Assembly: GCA_035528115.1 (NCBI GenBank)
Contig: DATKZF010000001.1
Span: 160,312-224,311, forward strand
DNA length: 64,000 nucleotides
Direction: 5' to 3'
From: Candidatus Bipolaricaulota bacterium
Lineage (GTDB): Bacteria; Patescibacteriota; Patescibacteriia; UBA11705; DATKZF01
Every line of letters starts with the position of its first letter. Within the stretch, counting starts at the first letter, position 1. Below, piece by piece: positions 1-56,676 of this stretch. Both the position numbers and the translations under genes were made by a program. The notes beneath the pieces were generated by a model. It was not told the origin of the DNA. It made no database searches and saw nothing but the letters and a program-made list of their open reading frames with translations.

Positions 1-477
1 CACGGTTTTGCCAACGCCCGCGCCTCCGAACAAACCGACTTTGCCGCCTTTGGTGAACGGGCAAATCAAATCGATAACCTTAATGCCGGTTTCAAAAATC
101 TCAGTTTTAGTGGATTGCTCCGCGAAAGCCGGCGCCGGTCGGTGAATGGGATATTTCTTTTCGGCTATAATGGCTTCTTTATTGTCGATCGGCTGACCAA
201 GCACGTCAAACATTCTGCCGAGCGTGTTTTTGCCCACCGGCACTTCAATCGGCAATCCGGAATCGACAACGTCCAGATTTCGCCGTAAGCCTTCCGTGGT
301 TCCCAAGGCAATGGCTCGGATCATTGATCCTCCCAAATGATTTTGCACTTCGAGCACCAATTTATTATTTTCGCTCACGTTTACTTCCAAACTATTCAAT
401 AAACCGGGCAAACCGTCTTTGAATTCCACATCGACAACCGGCCCGATGACTCGCTTTATTTTTCCAATGTTTTTCAT
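1..477 (-). CDS. atpD: ATP synthase F1 beta subunit, N-terminal part (gene continues beyond window start)
   Basis: Reverse complement of 1..477 translates [25 protein letters not shown]...[15 protein letters not shown] (Walker A). It is absent from the ORF track because it is truncated by the window edge. Confidence 0.9.
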
Positions 478-482
478 ATGCG

Positions 483-660
483 ATATATTGATTAAAGATT
501 AAATAAATTGGAAACCGGAAACTGGAAACTAGAAATTGGGGTTGGACAAGAAAATTGCCTCATTGTTACATTGTTCCATTGTTACGTGATTCCCGCCTCC
601 GCTCTTAAGCTACGGCGGGCAGGCATGCTCCATGTTTCATGATACGTGATACGTGTTTCA
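483..660. repeat. Family-B intergenic element (CAATGNAACAATG-type direct repeats plus a GC hairpin), located between atpG and atpD
   Basis: ggaaactggaaactagaaattggggttggacaagaaaattgcctcattgttacattgttccattgttac followed by a cccgcctccgc...gcggcggg hairpin and catgctccatgtttcatgatacgtgatacgtg. A second copy lies at 38021-38190. Confidence 0.6.
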
Positions 661-1623: not shown

Positions 1624-3177
1624 TTATTTAGCTTCGCCCTCTTCGGCGTCCGAGGACACCAGCATTTCCTTGACAGTTCCCTTATATTCTTCCACCAATC
1701 TTTTCATTTCATTTTCGATTTCTTCACTGAGATCTTTCTCCTTTTTGATTTTATCCAAAAGCCCTTTGGCTACGTTGTCCAAATATTTATGATAACCGGC
1801 TTCAAACAATCTGATCTTATCGGTTTTAACGTCGTCCAAATAACCGTTAACCGCGATATACAAAATCGCGATCTGATGCTCCACGGCCATGGGTTCGTAT
1901 TGACCTTGTTTCAATATTTCAGTGACTCGCTCCCCTCTTTCCAATTGCTTTCTGGTCGCTTCGTCAAGTTCGGAAGCGAACTGAGCGAAAGCCGCCAATT
2001 CTCGATATTGCGCCAAATCAAGTCTCAATTTGCCCGCCACTTTTTTCATCGCTTTCAGCTGAGCGGCCGAGCCCACGCGAGAAACCGACAAACCTATATT
2101 CAAAGCCGGTCTGATACCTTGATAAAACAAATCCGATTCCAAATAAATTTGCCCGTCCGTGATTGAAATCACATTGGTTGGAATATACGCTGACACATCT
2201 CCGGCCTGGGTCTCGATAATCGGCAAGGCCGTCAACGAACCGCCGCCTTCTTCTTCGCTTAATTTCGCGGCGCGCTCCAAAAGCCTGGAATGCAGGTAAA
2301 AAATATCTCCGGGATAAGCTTCTCTGCCCGGCGGTCGGCGCAAGAGCAAAGAAATTTCTCGATAAGACACGGCGTGCTTTGACAGATCATCATAAACAAC
2401 CAACACATCCTTGCCTTTGTCCATGAAAAACTCGCCAATGGCGCAACCGGAGTACGGCGCGATAAAAGACAACGAGGCCGAATCCGAAGCTCCCGCCACG
2501 ACTATAATGGTGTAATCCATGGCTCCCTTTTCTTCCAATTTGGATTTGATACGGGCGATTTTCGATTCTTTTTGGCCGATAGCCACATATATGCAAATCA
2601 TGTCTTGCCCTTTTTGATTGATAATGGCATCAATGGCAATGGCGCTTTTGCCGGTCTGACGATCGCCGATAATCAATTCCCTTTGGCCTCGGCCGATGGG
2701 AATCATCGAATCAATGGCTTTGATACCCGTTTGCACCGGCTGATTGACCGAGGATCTGGTGATCACTCCGGGCGCGATTTTTTCAATCGGATAAAATTGC
2801 TCGGCTTTTACCGGCGTTTTACCGTCAATAACATTACCGAGCGGATCGATGACTCTGCCAATCAAGCTTTCGGACACCGGCACTGACAGAATTTTTCCCG
2901 TGCTTTTTACTATGTCGCCTTCTTTAATTTTATGAAATTCACCCAAAACCATGGCTCCGACGCTATCTTCGTTTAAATTAAGCGCCACGCCGAGAACACC
3001 ATCGCCGAAATCAAGCATTTCCGAGGCCATCACGTCCGATAAGCCCGTGATTTTGGCAATGCCGTCGCCGACTTCAAGCACCTTACCCGTTTTTTCAATG
3101 GCCACGTCTTCTTTGAAATCTTCAATCTGCTTTTTCAGCATTTCCACTATGTGATCTTTTTTCAATGTTTTCTCCAT
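1624..3177 (-). CDS. atpA: ATP synthase F1 alpha subunit
   Basis: 517 aa with GDRQTGKS Walker A and alpha-subunit conservation throughout. Confidence 0.93.
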
Positions 3178-3217
3178 AATATTTGAAATTTATGAATTAC
3201 TTTATTAATGGCCGCCC

Positions 3218-3763
3218 TCAATTTATTTCGCGGATATTATTCCTTAGCCTGTCCAGTTTTCCCGCGACCGATGAATCGATAATCATGTCATCGATGGTTA
3301 TGCGCAACCCTCCGATCAATTCCGTCGAAATGACATTATTTAATCTTATTTCTTTTTTTGTTCTTTCAAATAACGCTTTTTTGAGTTGATTCGCTTGATT
3401 CTTGTCCAAGGGCACGACCGATTCGATCACGGCCAACGAAATATTCGATCCTGCCAATCGTTCAGCCTTGGCGACTTCGTAGATTGGTCCCAAATTCAAA
3501 ATATTATCGCTTTGAATCAACAACCGCAAAAAATTTTTGTTTTTTTCTCCAATCGATTTTTCAAAAACAATATCCAACGCCTTTTCCTTGTTCGAGAATT
3601 TGACTTCCGGGTCAGCGAGATAGTTTTTTATTTCGATTCGTTTATTTAAAACTTCAACCATCGAATCAAGCTCTGACAATAACTCATCGGCTTCTGTTTC
3701 CGACTTGGCGGCGGCGATCAGAGCTTTCGCCAATTGATTTATGGAAAAATTATTCGCGGACAT
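3218..3763 (-). CDS. atpH: ATP synthase F1 delta subunit (OSCP)
   Basis: 181 aa, located between atpF and atpA. Helical delta-like N-terminus. Confidence 0.75.
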   Translation of the reverse strand: MSANNFSINQLAKALIAAAKSETEADELLSELDSMVEVLNKRIEIKNYLADPEVKFSNKEKALDIVFEKSIGEKNKNFLRLLIQSDNILNLGPIYEVAKAERLAGSNISLAVIESVVPLDKNQANQLKKALFERTKKEIRLNNVISTELIGGLRITIDDMIIDSSVAGKLDRLRNNIREIN

Positions 3764-4566: not shown

Positions 4567-4646
4567 AAATATTCGATAACGTTTCTCGACTTTAAATTTT
4601 CACTTGTTTGTTTAGAGTCTGAGACGTTATCTTTAATAATAATCAA

Positions 4647-5399: not shown

Positions 5400-5400
5400 A

Positions 5401-5640
5401 CGTTACACGTTACGAATTATTACTTCTGAATTAGCTAGCCTTGGGTTTTGTCTGTTTCTTTTATTACGAATAATTACAAATACGTTACGAATACGTTACA
5501 AATTACTGCAGCTGGTAAGTTTGCCTTGGCGTTATGTTTATTACAAATACGTTACGAATTATTACTTCTAAATTAGCTAGCCTTGGATTTTGGCTCTTTG
5601 TTTAGGTGACGTTACGAATATCTGGCTAGCCTTGGTTTTA
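5401..5640. repeat. Tandem direct repeats (about 2.5 copies, period about 140 bp) containing the ACGTTACGAAT core, upstream of the atp operon
   Basis: acgttacgaattattacttct[ga]aattagctagccttgg at 5403-5448 and 5545-5592, with a partial third copy at 5609-5638. Confidence 0.6.
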
Positions 5641-5666
5641 AAAAACTGCAACCGCAATGCCGATTT

Positions 5667-8916: not shown

Positions 8917-8987
8917 ATGTCTGTGTATTTGATAATGCTCCGGAAATAGCGACTTGACAAATCAATCTGATTCAGCTATTTTATACA

Positions 8988-9127
8988 GACGGGCTTGAGG
9001 CGGTTGTTTCCCATTATTCACCTTGGTCCGGTTGACTCAAGTTGTGTTGACCGCCGGGGAGCTACGCTTTGCGCCTTCCTCCCGCAGAGCGTAACACACA
9101 TAATGAGAGATAAACGCTTCGCCCGTC
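8988..9127 (+). ncRNA. Candidate structured small RNA of unknown class. An SRP-RNA-like fold was considered and not confirmed. The strand is tentative.
   Basis: About 140-nt GC-rich intergenic segment closed by GACGGGC (8988-8994) pairing with GCCCGTC (9121-9127). A TTGACA (8954-8959) sits about 17-19 nt upstream of a weak TATTTT -10, placing a TSS right at the 5-prime stem arm. The segment has no ORF. Confidence 0.3.
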
Positions 9128-9130
9128 ACC

Positions 9131-9835
9131 TTACTCTGATGCTTGCGACAATCGCGGCATCTTTTTATTTCCGGCGACAATGACAGCGAATTCTCCTTTA
9201 ACTTCGCTGTCGGAAAAATTTTCTTTCAATGATTCGATCTTGCCGCGATAAATCGTTTCATGCATCTTGGTCAGCTCGCGACCGATAACCATCTGCCTCT
9301 CCGGCATCAATTCCGCCAAATCACCCAATGTTCTCATAATTCGATGAACCGATTCGTAAAAAATGACCGGGATCTCCGAATTCATTATTTTTTCATAAAT
9401 TTTTCTTCTGCCTTTTTTGTGAGGTAAAAACCCCAAAAAAATAAAATTATCCATGGGCAGTCCGGCCACGCTGATCAAAGTCGAAAAAGCCGCCGGACCT
9501 GGCAAAGGAATCGTTGTTATTCCCGCAGCAGCAGCGGCTTCGGCCAATTTGCCTCCGGGATCCGAAACATTGGGCGTGCCCGCGTCGCTGACATAAACAA
9601 CGTTTTGTCCGCCTTTGATTTTTTCTATCAACTCCTTGATTTTATGCGGCGAAGAATGCTGATGATAACTGATTGTCGGCTTATCGATGCCGTAATGCGT
9701 CAAAAGCTTTCGAGTGTGCCTGGTGTCTTCGCAAACAATCAAATTTGCTTCTTTCAAAGTCTCAACAACGCGATAAGTTATATCTTTCAAATTCCCTATC
9801 GGCGTGGCCGCGATATATAAATTTCCTGATTCCAT
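9131..9835 (-). CDS. rsmI: 16S rRNA (cytidine1402-2'-O)-methyltransferase
   Basis: NLYIAATPIGNLKDIT...VCEDTRHTRKLL, the typical RsmI N-terminus. Confidence 0.88.
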   Translation of the reverse strand: MESGNLYIAATPIGNLKDITYRVVETLKEANLIVCEDTRHTRKLLTHYGIDKPTISYHQHSSPHKIKELIEKIKGGQNVVYVSDAGTPNVSDPGGKLAEAAAAAGITTIPLPGPAAFSTLISVAGLPMDNFIFLGFLPHKKGRRKIYEKIMNSEIPVIFYESVHRIMRTLGDLAELMPERQMVIGRELTKMHETIYRGKIESLKENFSDSEVKGEFAVIVAGNKKMPRLSQASE

Positions 9836-10750: not shown

Positions 10751-11098
10751 TCAATCGAACAATTCGTTTCTCAAATCCTTGGCGTCATTGAAAAAATCCT
10801 TACCTTGCTCAATCGCCGAATCCATTTCTTTCAAATGTTCATCGGCTGACGCGGCCGCGTCTTGAGCTTTTTGCAATGATTCACGTCCTTCGCTTATCTC
10901 CACGCTTATTTGCGCCCTGACCGTCTGATAAAATTTATACAAATACAATCCGCCGGCTATAACCGCCGCAACAAAAATCAGCCAACAGCCGGTTTTTATT
11001 TTTGTCAAAATGCCGGTTTTATATTTGACGATTTCCTTTGGTTTGGCCGTCTCATTATTTTCTTTTGTTGAGCTGTTGCTGGAATGCTTCATAATCAA
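10751..11098 (-). CDS. Hypothetical N-terminally anchored membrane protein
   Basis: 115 aa with one TM helix (CWLIFVAAVIAGGLYLY) followed by a charged coiled coil. It overlaps the upstream gene by 4 nt. Confidence 0.5.
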   Translation of the reverse strand: MIMKHSSNSSTKENNETAKPKEIVKYKTGILTKIKTGCWLIFVAAVIAGGLYLYKFYQTVRAQISVEISEGRESLQKAQDAAASADEHLKEMDSAIEQGKDFFNDAKDLRNELFD

Positions 11099-15550: not shown

Positions 15551-15970
15551 ATAGTATTATTGCCGATCGTCTGCGGTCTTATCTGCCAGCTGTTAAAACT
15601 CATCTTCAGCGCGTTCACCGGAAAATTTTCATGGGGAGAATTGAACAGCTACGGCGGCATGCCGTCATCCCATTCGGCTTTCGTCTCATCGCTGGCCGTG
15701 GTGGCCGGCTATTATGAAGGCTGGACATCGGTCGCCTTTTCCATCGCCCTGGTTTTTGCCATTTTGACGATCAGAGACGCCATCGGATTTCGAAGAATTT
15801 TGGGCAAGCACGCGCAAATCATCAATCAGATGGTGCATCAAATGCCGGATTCGAACAAGTCAGACTATCAACAATTATCAACAAGACTCGGACACAAGCC
15901 CGGCGAGGCTCTGGCCGGCGCTTTGATCGGTGTAGCTGTTACTTTAATTTATGTTTTATTGACGCGATAA
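15542..15970 (+). CDS. Divergent PAP2-family (YuiD-like) membrane phosphatase-related protein
   Basis: GGMPSSHSA motif. Length 142 aa. Confidence 0.65.
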   Translation: MLQIVLLPIVCGLICQLLKLIFSAFTGKFSWGELNSYGGMPSSHSAFVSSLAVVAGYYEGWTSVAFSIALVFAILTIRDAIGFRRILGKHAQIINQMVHQMPDSNKSDYQQLSTRLGHKPGEALAGALIGVAVTLIYVLLTR

Positions 15971-15971
15971 G

Positions 15972-16826
15972 TCATTTTTGACAAACCGGACAAAAAACGG
16001 AAGTTCTGCCGGCAATTTTCATTTTTATCAAAACAGCGCCTTCGCGCCGGCACTTTTGCCCGACTCGACCGTAAACCTTCAATTTTTTTTCATACTCCCC
16101 GGTTTTGTTTGATCTGGAATAATTATTCTGAGACGTGCCTTTATCTTCGATGGCTTCGCTCAGAATTTTTTTTATATTTTCGAATAGTTTCTTGGCTTCT
16201 TTGGACGTTAATTTTCCTACCGCTCTATCCGGTCTGACTTTGGCCGCGAAACAAATCTCGTCGGAATATATGTTGCCGATGCCAGCCACTGCATTTTGAT
16301 CCAGCAACAACGCTTTGATTTTTTTTCGCGGAAATTCTTTTAACACCTTCGAAAAATATTCAAAGGTAAATTCTTTGGACAACGGCTCCGCGCCGACTTC
16401 ATTTAAAATATTTTTTAACGCTTTTTCATCCACCAAATTCAACCAGCCGAATTTTCGCACGTCATTGTAAAAAAGTTCTTCGCCGTTTCCAAAATTAAAA
16501 ATCACTCTGGTGAATTTATTGGGAACTTTTTCAACACCAGGAATGCCGTGTCCGCCGAAAATCAATTTGCCGTTTTTCGAGACAAAAACATACTGGCCGG
16601 TCATTTTCAAATGGCTGATCAAAGAAAGTCCTCCGGCCAAATCGAATATCAATTTTTTTTGACGGCGCCAAACCTTGGAAATTTTTTTATTTTTCAGTTT
16701 GGCCGCCAGATCCTTGGGAGATATTTTTTTCTTAAAATCCAAAACCTCCACCCGTCGGATTATTTTTCCGAGTAAAACCTTCGACAGCTCCGATTTTAAA
16801 ACTTCAACTTCAGGCAATTCGGGCAT
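15972..16826 (-). CDS. mutM: Formamidopyrimidine-DNA glycosylase
   Basis: N-terminal MPELPEVE and a C-terminal zinc finger (CPVCQK). Confidence 0.9.
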   Translation of the reverse strand: MPELPEVEVLKSELSKVLLGKIIRRVEVLDFKKKISPKDLAAKLKNKKISKVWRRQKKLIFDLAGGLSLISHLKMTGQYVFVSKNGKLIFGGHGIPGVEKVPNKFTRVIFNFGNGEELFYNDVRKFGWLNLVDEKALKNILNEVGAEPLSKEFTFEYFSKVLKEFPRKKIKALLLDQNAVAGIGNIYSDEICFAAKVRPDRAVGKLTSKEAKKLFENIKKILSEAIEDKGTSQNNYSRSNKTGEYEKKLKVYGRVGQKCRREGAVLIKMKIAGRTSVFCPVCQK

Positions 16827-37671: not shown

Positions 37672-37879
37672 ATAAATTTATTATACCACAAAAAAAATAT
37701 TGGGTAAATCAAAAAAAGTCCCAATTGGGACTCCATATTTTTTGTTTTTTGTTTTTTATATTTTATATTTTATTTTTGAATGGCTGTGCCATCCGTAGCG
37801 CATGCATTGAAACCTAAAGCGTCAATACTGGTCGTTCTTCGTTGAAACTTCGAACGACATCCTTCGCTATCGCGAAGGA

Positions 37880-37954
37880 TGGTACCGCCACGGGGAATCG
37901 AACCCCGGTTCCCAGCGTGAGAAGCTGATGTCCTAACCACTAGACGATGGCGGC
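37880..37954 (-). tRNA. tRNA-Glu (anticodon CUC)
   Basis: Reverse complement GCCGCCATCGTCTAGTGGTTAGGACATCAGCTTCTCACGCTGGGAACCGGGGTTCGATTCCCCGTGGCGGTACCA folds as a cloverleaf with a GGTTCGATTCC T-arm and encoded CCA. The overlapping ORF 37770..37964 is spurious. Confidence 0.8.
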
Positions 37955-38020
37955 GCGTTTTCAAGGTATTTTAACAGAAAACCGGATATAGTCAACAGTG
38001 CGGTAAATAGTAATGGGTAA

Positions 38021-38190
38021 TCGGAAACTGGGAATTAGAAATTAGGGTTGGAGAAGAAAATTGCTTCATTGCTTCATTGTTTCATTGTTACATTGTTATG
38101 TGATATGTGTTCCATGATTCATGCTCCCCGCCTTCGCCCTATCGGGGCTTCGGCGGGCGTGTTACATGACACATCAAGACACAAGCCACT
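38021..38190. repeat. Family-B intergenic element, second copy (between the murF 3-prime end and tRNA-Glu)
   Basis: cggaaactgggaattagaaattagggttggagaagaaaattgcttcattgcttcattgtttcattgttacattgtt followed by a ccccgccttcgcc...cggcgggcg hairpin. About 80% identical to 510-600. Confidence 0.6.
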
Positions 38191-49328: not shown

Positions 49329-49388
49329 AAATTTTGCAAAATGATTGACGCGCTAAAACAATGGAGCAATGAGACAATGGAACAATCG

Positions 49389-56013: not shown

Positions 56014-56116
56014 ATTACGAATGGTTACGAATTACAATCATCCCGTTGGCTTTTAGGTTATTTGTTACTAATTACAATCTTCTTAGGCATAAAGCTATAA
56101 GTTAATGTACTTCATA
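56014..56116. repeat. MITE-like element family A (partly degenerate), followed by a fragment of family-B repeat
   Basis: GTTACGAATTACA at 56014-56026 and the internal ttaggttatttgttac segment. The right end is degenerate. The 56120-56160 stretch catgctccatgatacatgatacgtgacacatg matches the 3-prime end of the 483-660 element. Confidence 0.55.
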
Positions 56117-56164
56117 ACAATGCTTCATGCTCCATGATACATGATACGTGACACATGAATTATA

Positions 56165-56577: not shown

Positions 56578-56676
56578 AAGTTTTGCATGCTTGCCCTCCG
56601 TAGCCCTGCCTACCGGCAGGTTTAGCGAAGGAGGGAATCATGGATCAATTTTATTTTTTATTTTTGTTTTTGAACT

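Follow-up and report, generated by a model that had tools for sequence, protein, structure and literature searches.

Modular repeat elements in the atpG-atpD and murF-tRNA-Glu spacers of a Patescibacteria genome

The sequence analyzed here (the window) is a 64-kb stretch of contig DATKZF010000001.1, and its subject is a pair of related repeats of about 170 bp, one (copy 1) located between the ATP synthase genes atpG and atpD and the other (copy 2) between the murF stop codon and the gene for tRNA-Glu(CTC). As 63 of the 74 genes called in the window are on the minus strand, this was taken as the transcribed strand at both copies. On that strand, atpG occupies 661-1608 and atpD begins at 477, leaving a spacer of 183 nt (478-660), while murF occupies 38174-39454, with its stop codon at 38174-38176, and tRNA-Glu(CTC) lies at 37880-37954. 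Pfam searches confirmed atpA, atpG, atpD, a peptidyl-prolyl isomerase gene (ppi) and atpC on the identical contig L036 of an independent Logan assembly (related sequences are cited by such L numbers throughout), where the copy 1 spacer is 100% identical over 178 nt; copy 1 is not an assembly artefact. The nearest named relatives of AtpG and MurF come from Kuenenbacteria, Falkowbacteria and “Patescibacteria group” metagenome-assembled genomes. A Shine-Dalgarno (SD)-like motif was present at only 4 of 39 gene starts in the window, atpD being among the 35 without one. The features of the two copies, including arrays detected with Tandem Repeats Finder (TRF), are as follows.

505-539, head of copy 1: degenerate 7-nt array, GGAAACY on the plus strand and TTTCCNG on the transcribed minus strand (TRF period 7, 5 copies)
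539-558, non-repetitive core of copy 1: GGGTTGGACAAGAAAATTGC, with 2 copies in the window
554-585, 8-nt array of copy 1: CATTGTTN x3, reading AACAATGN on the transcript (TRF period 8; direct-repeat family D1)
592-619, or to 623 with CAGG, plus strand (antisense to atp transcription): hairpin hp1, 28 nt, CCCGCC-TCC-GC..GC-TAC-GGCGGG, present in every folding
624-660, tail of copy 1: array of CRTGNTN heptamers that extends to the atpG stop codon at 661-663 (TRF period 7; family D3)
37968-37995, minus strand: tRNA-Glu promoter TTGACT-16-TAAAAT, TG-extended (10/12), directly downstream of the copy 2 head and outside the repeat
38012-38099, head, core (38045-38064) and 8-nt array CATTGYTN x5 of copy 2: 86% identical to 506-585
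38099-38126, heptamers of copy 2: TGTGATA TGTGTTC CATGATT CATGCTC, placed by alignment between the 8-nt array and the hairpin
38127-38157, plus strand: hairpin hp2, 31 nt, CCCGCC-TTC-GCCC..GGGC-TTC-GGCGGG, 16 nt past the murF stop codon (family I1)

The two copies share a head, as the original prediction from the sequence had proposed, and its similarity is far beyond chance. Positions 506-585 and 38012-38091 are 86% identical over 80 ungapped nt (repeat family D9; blastn E = 2e-21 versus about 200 kb), and two occurrences of the 20-mer core GGGTTGGANAAGAAAATTGC in the window contrast with 0.07 expected from shuffles. Autocorrelation showed maxima at lags 7 and 8 in both copies, and TRF resolved the copy 2 array at 38060-38095 with a period of 8 and 4.5 copies. 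Read along the transcript, copy 1 consists of (CAYGNAN)n heptamers, the GC hairpin, (AACAATGN)3, the core GCAATTTTCTTGTCCAACCC, (TTTCCNG)4 and an A/T-rich stretch of 25 nt before the atpD ATG. The prediction of one common 170-bp element stood for the head, the arrays and the CCCGCC...GGCGGG hairpin, which are in both spacers, but not for their arrangement, as the CRTG heptamers lie beyond the hairpin in copy 1 and before it in copy 2 and the two hairpins belong to different subtypes. Collinearity is limited to the head and the 8-mer array, and the 170-bp element is thus a mosaic, not a single unit. No inverted repeat links the ends of 470-680 or of 37955-38190 and no target duplication surrounds the 170-bp elements, the inverted repeats within these regions being the central hairpin and a local CATG palindrome only.

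A scan for GGGTTGGANAAGAAAATTGC in 185,579 species genomes and 241 million metagenome records revealed no further true copy. It gave 8 genome, 26 metagenome and 1 viral (L035) matches; in context the 34 genome and metagenome matches are chance occurrences, almost all within unrelated coding sequence and most within one Terriglobales-type gene family, a pattern that does not include the viral match. The head was also without a blastn match in phage and plasmid collections, without a copy in about 200 kb of related genomes and not found in the regions downstream of murF in L045 and L048. Words of the head array (TAGAAATTGG / CCAATTTCTA) reappear in hairpin spacers of the relatives L045 and L055, so that the head looks like another member of the word vocabulary of this lineage.

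Two further arrays in the window resemble parts of the copies.

49353-49386: isolated AACAATGN array in a convergent intergenic region, in opposite orientation relative to the neighbouring gene
56120-56160: third tail-like CATGNTN array (TRF 56133-56158, period 7), downstream of a promoter-like TGTGGTATAAT and abutting an element of another repeat family (family-1)

Both had been predicted, the former as an array recurring in opposite orientation and the latter as a third tail, and both were recovered: over 32 nt, 56120-56160 and the copy 1 tail are 87% identical (E = 3e-5), and 49353-49386 matches the 8-nt arrays at 80-83% over 30 nt (E = 0.003-0.02), a low-complexity similarity. The likeness of both to the copies is one of common short words. 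The copy 1 tail also resembles the atpD-ppi spacer of L036 and the atpG-atpD spacers of relatives. Among 17 TRF arrays of period 7 or 8 in the window, 12 fall in the 9.6% of the DNA that is non-coding (binomial p = 2e-9), and short-period arrays are therefore a general property of spacers here, not one special to two sites. The spacers of the atp operons compared in five related lineages are as follows.

L050 (AtpG identity 74%): atpG-atpD spacer of 11 nt
L051 (Kuenenbacteria; AtpG identity 61%): 49 nt
L037 (AtpG identity 79%): 84 nt, 10955-11038
L040 (AtpG identity 81%): 85 nt, 3134-3218
L043 (AtpG identity 74%): 116 nt, 10883-10998

Neither the head nor the GC hairpin was found in any of these five spacers. 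Those of L037, L040 and L043 are made of the lineage-specific heptamer words ATCATGG, CACATAA and ACAAATA and form long imperfect palindromes with folding z-scores of -4.8 to -6.7 relative to shuffles; the palindromic architecture is kept and the sequence completely turned over. The element is a genuine repeat that fills spacers right after stop codons, as predicted; the idea that so long an atpG-atpD spacer is unusual did not survive the comparison, as arrays of this sort occupy almost all atp spacers, both here and in close relatives. In L055, five perfect CCATGCT heptamers directly precede the mraZ start (within 9400-9476) beside degenerate units, which suggests recent and still ongoing array expansion in that relative. 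L055 also contains, at 15727-16357, an array of roughly 430 nt in which a unit of about 12 nt (ATAACGCAA-type) occurs more than 30 times; large GC palindromes come after it. Such repeats break assemblies: independent assemblies stop within related repeats at L044, L048 and L049.

The GC hairpin belongs to a family with two further members in the window.

37831-37858, plus strand: hairpin hp4, GTCGTTC-TTC-GT..AC-TTC-GAACGAC, with the architecture of the family, 21 nt past the tRNA-Glu 3' end
56594-56635, with CAAG from 56590, minus strand: hairpin hp3, CCCTCC-TTC-GC..GC-TAC-GGAGGG, in the rsmH-ftsL spacer in sense orientation

The four hairpins (28-42 nt) are all intergenic and lie 16-41 nt past the 3' end of atpG, murF, rsmH or tRNA-Glu. 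The family occurs in two orientations, three of the four being antisense to transcription and hp3, like the hairpins of relatives, sense. Flanks and loop bases are nearly identical in hp3 (TGATTCCC(T)CCTTCGCT...GCTACGG(A)GGGCAAGCATGC) and hp1 (TGATTCCC(G)CCTCCGCT...GCTACGG(C)GGGCAGGCATGC), with a compensatory G:C to T:A change in the stem of hp3 relative to hp1. By its loop bases and inner stem hp1 differs from hp2 and is nearer to hp3 and to the hairpins of relatives. The apical loop of hp3 holds a nested CCTGCC-GGTA-GGCAGG hairpin, and a related CCTGCC...GGCAGG hairpin lies downstream of murF in L048. A covariance model (R1) trained on four sequences from L048 and L045 only matched all four window hairpins, with rough E-values of 0.0018 (hp3), 0.0035 (hp4), 0.005 (hp1) and 0.056 (hp2); it detected no other hairpin in about 117 kb of relatives, and 10.7 kb of additional flank contained none. 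When eight hairpins were aligned with their apical parts swapped for a fixed AAAA, 100% of cells were paired (a fraction inflated by a search pattern that itself required pairing), two-sided changes were present in 5 of 8 pairs and the loop bases T7, C9, T18 and C20 (T-N-C / T-N-C) were invariant. Common flanks, CCAT-S-R-T ... CA-R-GC-W-W-G, accompany the hairpins in unrelated contexts, namely arrays and tRNA-like sequence in two other genomes. In sense RNA the internal loop is G-N-A/G-N-A in hp1, hp2 and hp4 and U-N-C/U-N-C in hp3 and the relatives, so that no single RNA strand is favoured by a loop that reads both ways; one G-U pair in L048 favours the U-N-C strand. Next to hp4, a perfect 8-bp hairpin at 37860-37879 (TCCTTCGC-TATC-GCGAAGGA) abuts the CCA end of tRNA-Glu; it has the TTCGC...GCGAA motif in common with the family but is without the internal loop.

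The sites occupied by the hairpins have the anatomy of insertions. Excision of hp1 with CAGG (592-623) leaves the in-phase series CGTGATT CATGCTC CATGTTT CATGATA CGTGATA CGTGTTT, excision of hp2 leaves CATGATT CATGCTC CGTGTTA CATGACA and excision of hp3 with CAAG leaves CATGATT CATGCAA, the heptamer phase being regained at all three array sites. The word just before the insertion is CATGATT, CGTGATT or CATGCTC, and CATCGT(C) in tRNA fragments. Downstream of murF in L048 and L045, the hairpin sits within tRNA-Glu-like 5' fragments, and comparison with genuine tRNA-Glu (GCCGCCATCGTCTAGTGGTTAG) shows it to be an insertion of precisely 30 nt. The rsmH-ftsL spacer, which is filled by hp3 in the window, is empty of a hairpin in two relatives: it measures 24 nt in L053 and is a pure heptamer array of 84 nt in L055, where its 5' part, AAAAACAAAAATAAAATTGATNCATG, is common with the window.

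The tRNA-like regions of these two relatives have further structure. In L045 (6320-6640), a strong promoter (TTGAAA-17-TACAAT) is followed by the tRNA-Glu-like 5' fragment with its 30-nt hairpin insertion, a 16-nt arm ATATTTAGGAAATTTT, an intact tRNA-Glu(CTC), the complementary arm AAAATTTCCTAAATAT and finally the decayed 3' part of a tRNA, which extends from the D-stem strand to CCA and pairs through its acceptor strand with the 5' fragment. The region folds as a cloverleaf within a cloverleaf (z = -5.7) and looks like a tRNA-carrying mini-element with inverted ends inserted in the D-arm of a resident tRNA-Glu gene; ARAGORN gave only a sub-threshold, unconvincing call for the nested tRNA-like gene with the inner part spliced out. 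In L048 (11450-11741), the orthologous tRNA-Glu promoter, TTGACT-16-TATAAT (11/12), is followed by at least three tandem 84-nt units, in each of which a 5' fragment of tRNA-Glu is joined to the hairpin, CTAGTGGTTAG and an A/T-rich arm. At the end of the first unit is CCCCGTTTTCTTAGGGGATTTTT, terminator-like in look, stem position 3 of the units is G-U, A-U or G-C, and both assemblies of that genome stop here.

With a probability of roughly 0.55, the elements are a lineage-specific patchwork of word arrays, one duplicated block and a small hairpin with the look of an independent insertion. The best reading is a modular extragenic repeat of the kind of the repetitive extragenic palindromic (REP) sequences and bacterial interspersed mosaic elements (BIMEs) or of BOX, combined with a target-specific miniature palindromic insertion, rather than any conserved RNA that regulates the ATP synthase operon. 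On this reading, arrays of 7-8 nt words would arise and change length via replication slippage, and decay via point mutation; they fill many spacers of the clade. A block of about 80-90 nt (TTTCCNG array, unique core and AACAATGN array) was duplicated between the atpG-atpD and murF-tRNA-Glu spacers. The hairpin, of roughly 30 nt, would be a REP-like miniature palindromic element: an outer stem of 6 bp and a short inner stem flank an invariant 3x3 internal loop (T-N-C/T-N-C), the tip varies and a C-R-R-G tail is usually present. The hairpin would have been inserted independently, exactly between heptamer units and 3' of a word of the CATGATT / CGTGATT / CATGCTC type and, in relatives, after CATCGT(C) in tRNA-Glu-like 5' fragments, and a target-specific enzyme may have mobilised it as a hairpin of single-stranded DNA, as with IS200/IS605 or the REP-associated tyrosine transposases (RAYTs). 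As for consequences, a transcript stem-loop 16-41 nt past a stop codon or tRNA end could shield upstream mRNA from 3' exonucleases, as REP/BIME sequences do, and such passive protection of the upstream mRNA segment appears the most likely consequence of the hairpin. Effects of the element on mRNA, if any, are probably incidental; translation of atpD would still start from a leader that is unstructured, A/U-rich and SD-less, as for most genes here, and needs no coupling to atpG.

Several points weigh against this interpretation. No Y1/HUH (Y1_Tnp) or other transposase was detected among the 20 window proteins scanned versus Pfam, and copy number, which is defining for REP-like families, was read over about 75 kb of genome only. 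The set of eight hairpins is small and was partly gathered by a pattern requiring pairing, and the tool that computed the R1 E-values describes them as rough. The 4-nt tail of the hairpin is ambiguous at hp2, and the hairpin lies within about 45 nt of both heads, which could indicate an ancestral composite element instead of independent insertions.

The main rival is a boundary function, which is unlikely but has the position of copy 2 in its favour. In this explanation the hairpin and weakly structured RNA with more C than G end the transcript, as a U-tract-less or factor-dependent terminator, and a promoter beyond restarts transcription, so that atpD-ppi-atpC would form a unit of its own, perhaps leaderless. 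Copy 2 fits exactly into the interval from the murF stop codon to the strong tRNA-Glu promoter, in which there is no canonical terminator, all four hairpins closely follow the 3' end of a gene, and the sense strand outside the hairpin contains 21-24% C and 13-14% G, the reverse of coding sequence. TATAAT-N7-8-ATG starts of leaderless type occur elsewhere, and atpD is preceded by CAATAT-ATCGCAT-ATG. The terminator scan of the minus strand gave nothing at hp1 or hp2, however, and the hairpins have no T-run: the sequence directly after the hairpin is AAUCACG at hp1 and GAGCAUG at hp2, which are not the U-run of an intrinsic terminator, and the genome uses canonical hairpin and T-run terminators elsewhere. 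Neither promoter nor terminator was found within the repeat unit in scans of either copy, and on the minus strand at 300-900 there was no terminator and no promoter scoring at least 9/12, the best candidate by eye before atpD being TTCCAA-17-CAATAT (6/12). Copy 1 is thus very probably co-transcribed with atpG, as predicted, but the same claim of a location within a transcription unit does not hold for copy 2. In addition, hp3 lies 16 nt before the ftsL start in the essential mraZ-rsmH-ftsL operon, where termination would be harmful, and atpG-atpD spacers of 11 and 49 nt suffice in relatives.

It is equally improbable that the elements are neutral low-complexity DNA, in which slippage and template switching form arrays and palindromes in situ, the hairpins are convergent and nothing is mobile. 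Array word and length do differ between close relatives at the same site, as this would predict, L055 carries both the perfect (CCATGCT)5 and a stretch of 600 nt arrayed in units of roughly 12 nt, and the atpG-atpD spacers of relatives are palindromes of such words (z = -4.8 to -6.7). What argues against it is the hairpin: identical invariant loop bases and similar flanks recur in settings as unrelated as arrays and the tRNA-like sequence of two other genomes, and the hairpins break AT-rich arrays at unit boundaries, a pattern that in-situ slippage does not give.

Less credible still is a dedicated cis-regulatory RNA or processed small RNA (sRNA) of the atp operon that would tune beta-subunit expression via a structured element or RNase site. 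The location between atpG and atpD suits it, as does the stable hairpin, whose internal loops on the sense strand are purine-rich (G-N-A/G-N-A) in copies 1 and 2, and a strong hairpin of other sequence is kept at the spacer of relatives, so that some intercistronic stem may be selected. The spacer nevertheless lacks sequence conservation in relatives and, with folding z-scores of +0.2 to +0.5, folds no better than shuffles on either strand; only the plus strand of copy 2 was slightly better (z = -1.2). A scan of the 64 kb at the Rfam gathering threshold gave tRNA only, and permissive scans of both copies gave matches far under the gathering score (E at least 1). The second copy precedes a tRNA promoter, not a coding start, both orientations are found in the hairpin family, and the only small open reading frame (ORF) common to both copies (MRQFSCPTPIS... 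/ MKQFSSPTLIS...), rejected as coding, differs non-synonymously at 8 of 8 variable codons. The sRNA, attenuator or RNase site of the original prediction thus found no support. Further copies and conservation of the spacer, whose absence it had taken to mark lineage-specific junk, were largely not found, either for the head core or in the relatives' spacers of 11-116 nt.

A plus-strand antisense small RNA or protein-titrating RNA with GGA every 7 nt (GGAAACC GGAAACT GGAAACT) and an end at the GC hairpin is very improbable, for although a weak promoter-like site (461-489(+), 9/12), a weak terminator-like site (617-630(+)) and the z of -1.2 of the copy 2 plus strand would fit it, promoter-like matches occur at background frequency, the putative promoter lies outside the repeated unit, copy 2 has no plus-strand promoter before it and conservation is absent.

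Other candidates were also rejected. Long-range pairing was examined by asking whether complementary arms flank atpD in the way they flank atpC; pairing of the atpG-atpD spacer with other atp spacers was not significant (z = -1.9) apart from cross-matches of the GC hairpin. A stem like that of an intervening sequence (IVS) or RNase III substrate, with a duplex of at least about 20 bp, was not formed (spacer z = +0.3 to +0.5). Periodic sites for Rho, CsrA, HutP or TRAP as an explanation of the 7-nt arrays fit poorly in orientation or period and had no support. The hairpin has attC-like features, with stem, unpaired spacer, stem and variable tip; going by what is generally known of attC, it is too small, without RYYYAAC/GTTRRRY boxes and without cassette context. 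Tandem interspaced guide RNA (TIGR) arrays, considered because they are found in Patescibacteria, have units of about 36 nt with edge and loop repeats, two 8-9-nt spacers, box C/D motifs and a nearby Tas gene with a Nop domain (PMC12045711). The present arrays have periods of 7 and 8 nt with 3-5 units and no 36-nt periodicity, and their neighbours are atp, mur and tRNA genes only.

Whether the hairpin represents an undescribed class of miniature mobile palindromes in Patescibacteria is a more tentative matter. Such a class, which we consider possible but doubtful, would insert, probably as single-stranded DNA, 3' of CAT-S-N-T-Y, with heptamer arrays as landing pads and the D-arm of tRNA-Glu (CATCGTC^TAG) as a natural target. 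If so, D-arm targeting would yield the tRNA 5'-fragment arrays and nested tRNA genes of the relatives and, together with word-hairpin spacers and cassettes of intervening-sequence protein (IVP) genes, would amount to lineage-wide punctuation of operons by small selfish palindromes. Only this mobile-hairpin aspect may be novel. Full-text literature searches gave no description of REP-type elements or miniature inverted-repeat transposable elements (MITEs) in Patescibacteria, which is weak negative evidence. If the patchwork reading is right, the element says nothing special on the regulation of ATP synthase, and the spacers of these tiny, SD-poor genomes of the candidate phyla radiation (CPR) would be composed of slippage arrays, segmental duplication and a small target-specific palindrome. 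Repeats of this kind inflate apparently “regulatory” spacers and can disrupt or duplicate tRNA genes, and a REP-like element with a defined insertion word would offer a handle on mobile-DNA biology in this uncultivated phylum.

Further features were observed in the atp operons and elsewhere in the window. The peptidyl-prolyl isomerase gene between atpD and atpC lies just beyond the left end of the window (L036 12502-13194); the order atpD-ppi-atpC is also present in L037, L043 and L050, and the Kuenenbacteria relative L051 is without the isomerase gene there. Genes of PF05635 (23S_rRNA_IVP) are located within the atp operons of L050 (3577-4027, atpD-ppi) and L037 (6760-7348, atpE-atpF), each between complementary (inverted) word arrays, like an rRNA intervening sequence moved into mRNA. 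Upstream of atpE, a conserved bipartite hairpin (GATAAC..CGACT, an A-rich loop of about 20 nt, AGTCG..GTTATC) occurs in the window (4567-4646, minus strand), L037 (6313-6531), L043 (6584-6816) and L051 (5021-5097), that is in lineages down to 61% AtpG identity; it has no Rfam match and is a candidate for a conserved c-subunit leader. A class I aminoacyl-tRNA synthetase gene is preceded by a GC-rich leader of about 214-260 nt (window 8917-9130; L037 1950-2181; L043 2135-2393); this leader has no Rfam match at the gathering threshold and may be a divergent T-box or another leader. Family-1 (GTTACGAATTACAAT), the first repeat family of the window, includes inverted repeats of 103 nt, 95% complementary, at 56019-56121 and 58184-58286 around the mraZ-rsmH-ftsL block (2,062 nt) and also occurs at 5400-5666 and at 45.1, 48.2 and 59.9 kb; complementary arms of family-1 also lie on either side of atpC in L036 (duplex z = -7.8). 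Sequence upstream of mraZ is conserved among three genomes (window 58132-58538; L053 1117-1588; L055 9142-9476), with GTGGGG-N4-GTGGGG direct repeats around TATAAT, a GC hairpin in the leader (CCGGCGG...CCGCCGG) and TTATCCACA-type boxes. MraZ in E. coli binds TGGGN direct repeats, and the GTGGGG repeats are, by analogy, a probable MraZ operator. An origin of replication (oriC) at the DnaA-box-like cluster at 58.1-58.5 kb was rejected, there being no switch in gene orientation and the conserved part being the mraZ promoter with its GTGGGG repeats. The 87-nt (29-codon) tandem repeat at 41628-43277 (about 11-12 copies, 61-80% identity) lies inside a plus-strand ORF of 549 aa, which encodes a repeat protein unrelated to the spacer elements. 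Regions upstream of window genes typically finish in AAATT or AAAAT, and TATAAT is followed by ATG 7-8 nt on at several genes (e.g. gene starts 9835, 23454 and 37671), which suggests widespread leaderless mRNAs. An identical RsmH carries the label “Candidatus Bipolaricaulota” in one source; since the closest relatives of AtpG, MurF and RsmH are Patescibacteria in all three cases, the deposited name ‘Candidatus Bipolaricaulota bacterium’ looks wrong.

Known systems for comparison include the 23S rRNA intervening sequences, of which that of Coxiella has been described as selfish and as removed by RNase III (PMC4990558). The long word-hairpins in the atp spacers of close relatives and the stem-plus-optional-ORF design of their PF05635 genes recall this type, whereas the two window elements form no long stem (z about 0) and occupy mRNA spacers rather than rRNA. 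Like the window elements, BOX elements of Streptococcus pneumoniae are modular intergenic repeats with a variable count of internal tandem modules (boxB), and BOX and the Correia elements of Neisseria are co-transcribed with flanking genes and can affect mRNA stability or processing (Correia, via RNase III). Both are, however, high-copy, with defined ends or terminal inverted repeats, whereas the long common block here has two copies and no terminal repeats; the hairpin elements were not classed as MITEs because they too are without terminal repeats. IS200/IS605 elements and palindrome-associated transposable elements (PATEs) are comparable in that insertion is seemingly right 3' of a short word (CATGATT / CGTGATT / CATGCTC / CATCGTC), that terminal inverted repeats and target duplication are missing and that the element is essentially a structured hairpin. 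They differ in that IS200/IS605 has left- and right-end hairpins around cargo, as opposed to one hairpin of about 30 nt with no TnpA identified here, and the mechanism suggested for the present hairpin derives from insertion-site anatomy at 3-5 sites only. REP/BIME sequences are short imperfect GC-rich palindromes, extragenic, often located within operons after stop codons, present in both orientations and able to stabilise upstream mRNA. With this system (REPIN-RAYT), hp1-hp4 share the 20-40 nt size class of GC-rich palindrome, the extragenic location in both orientations, the mosaics with other short motifs and the conserved stem irregularities while the stem covaries. The GTAG/CTAC hairpin foot is absent, the foot being formed by CATGATT / CGTGATT / CATGCTC at one flank and by CAGG / CAAG at the other; GTAGC occurs within the internal loop only, on the opposite strand, of hp1, hp3 and the L048 hairpin. 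The conserved feature here is instead the symmetric 3x3 internal loop, and the hairpins are single, not REPIN doublets, and set in AT-rich heptamer arrays, with no RAYT gene seen among the 20 window proteins. The hairpin was therefore not filed as a REP, the GTAG foot being absent and copy number and a RAYT gene lying beyond the stretch read, and in function and anatomy the elements recall REP/BIME mosaics and modular BOX-type repeats, with IS200/IS605-like behaviour at the insertion sites.

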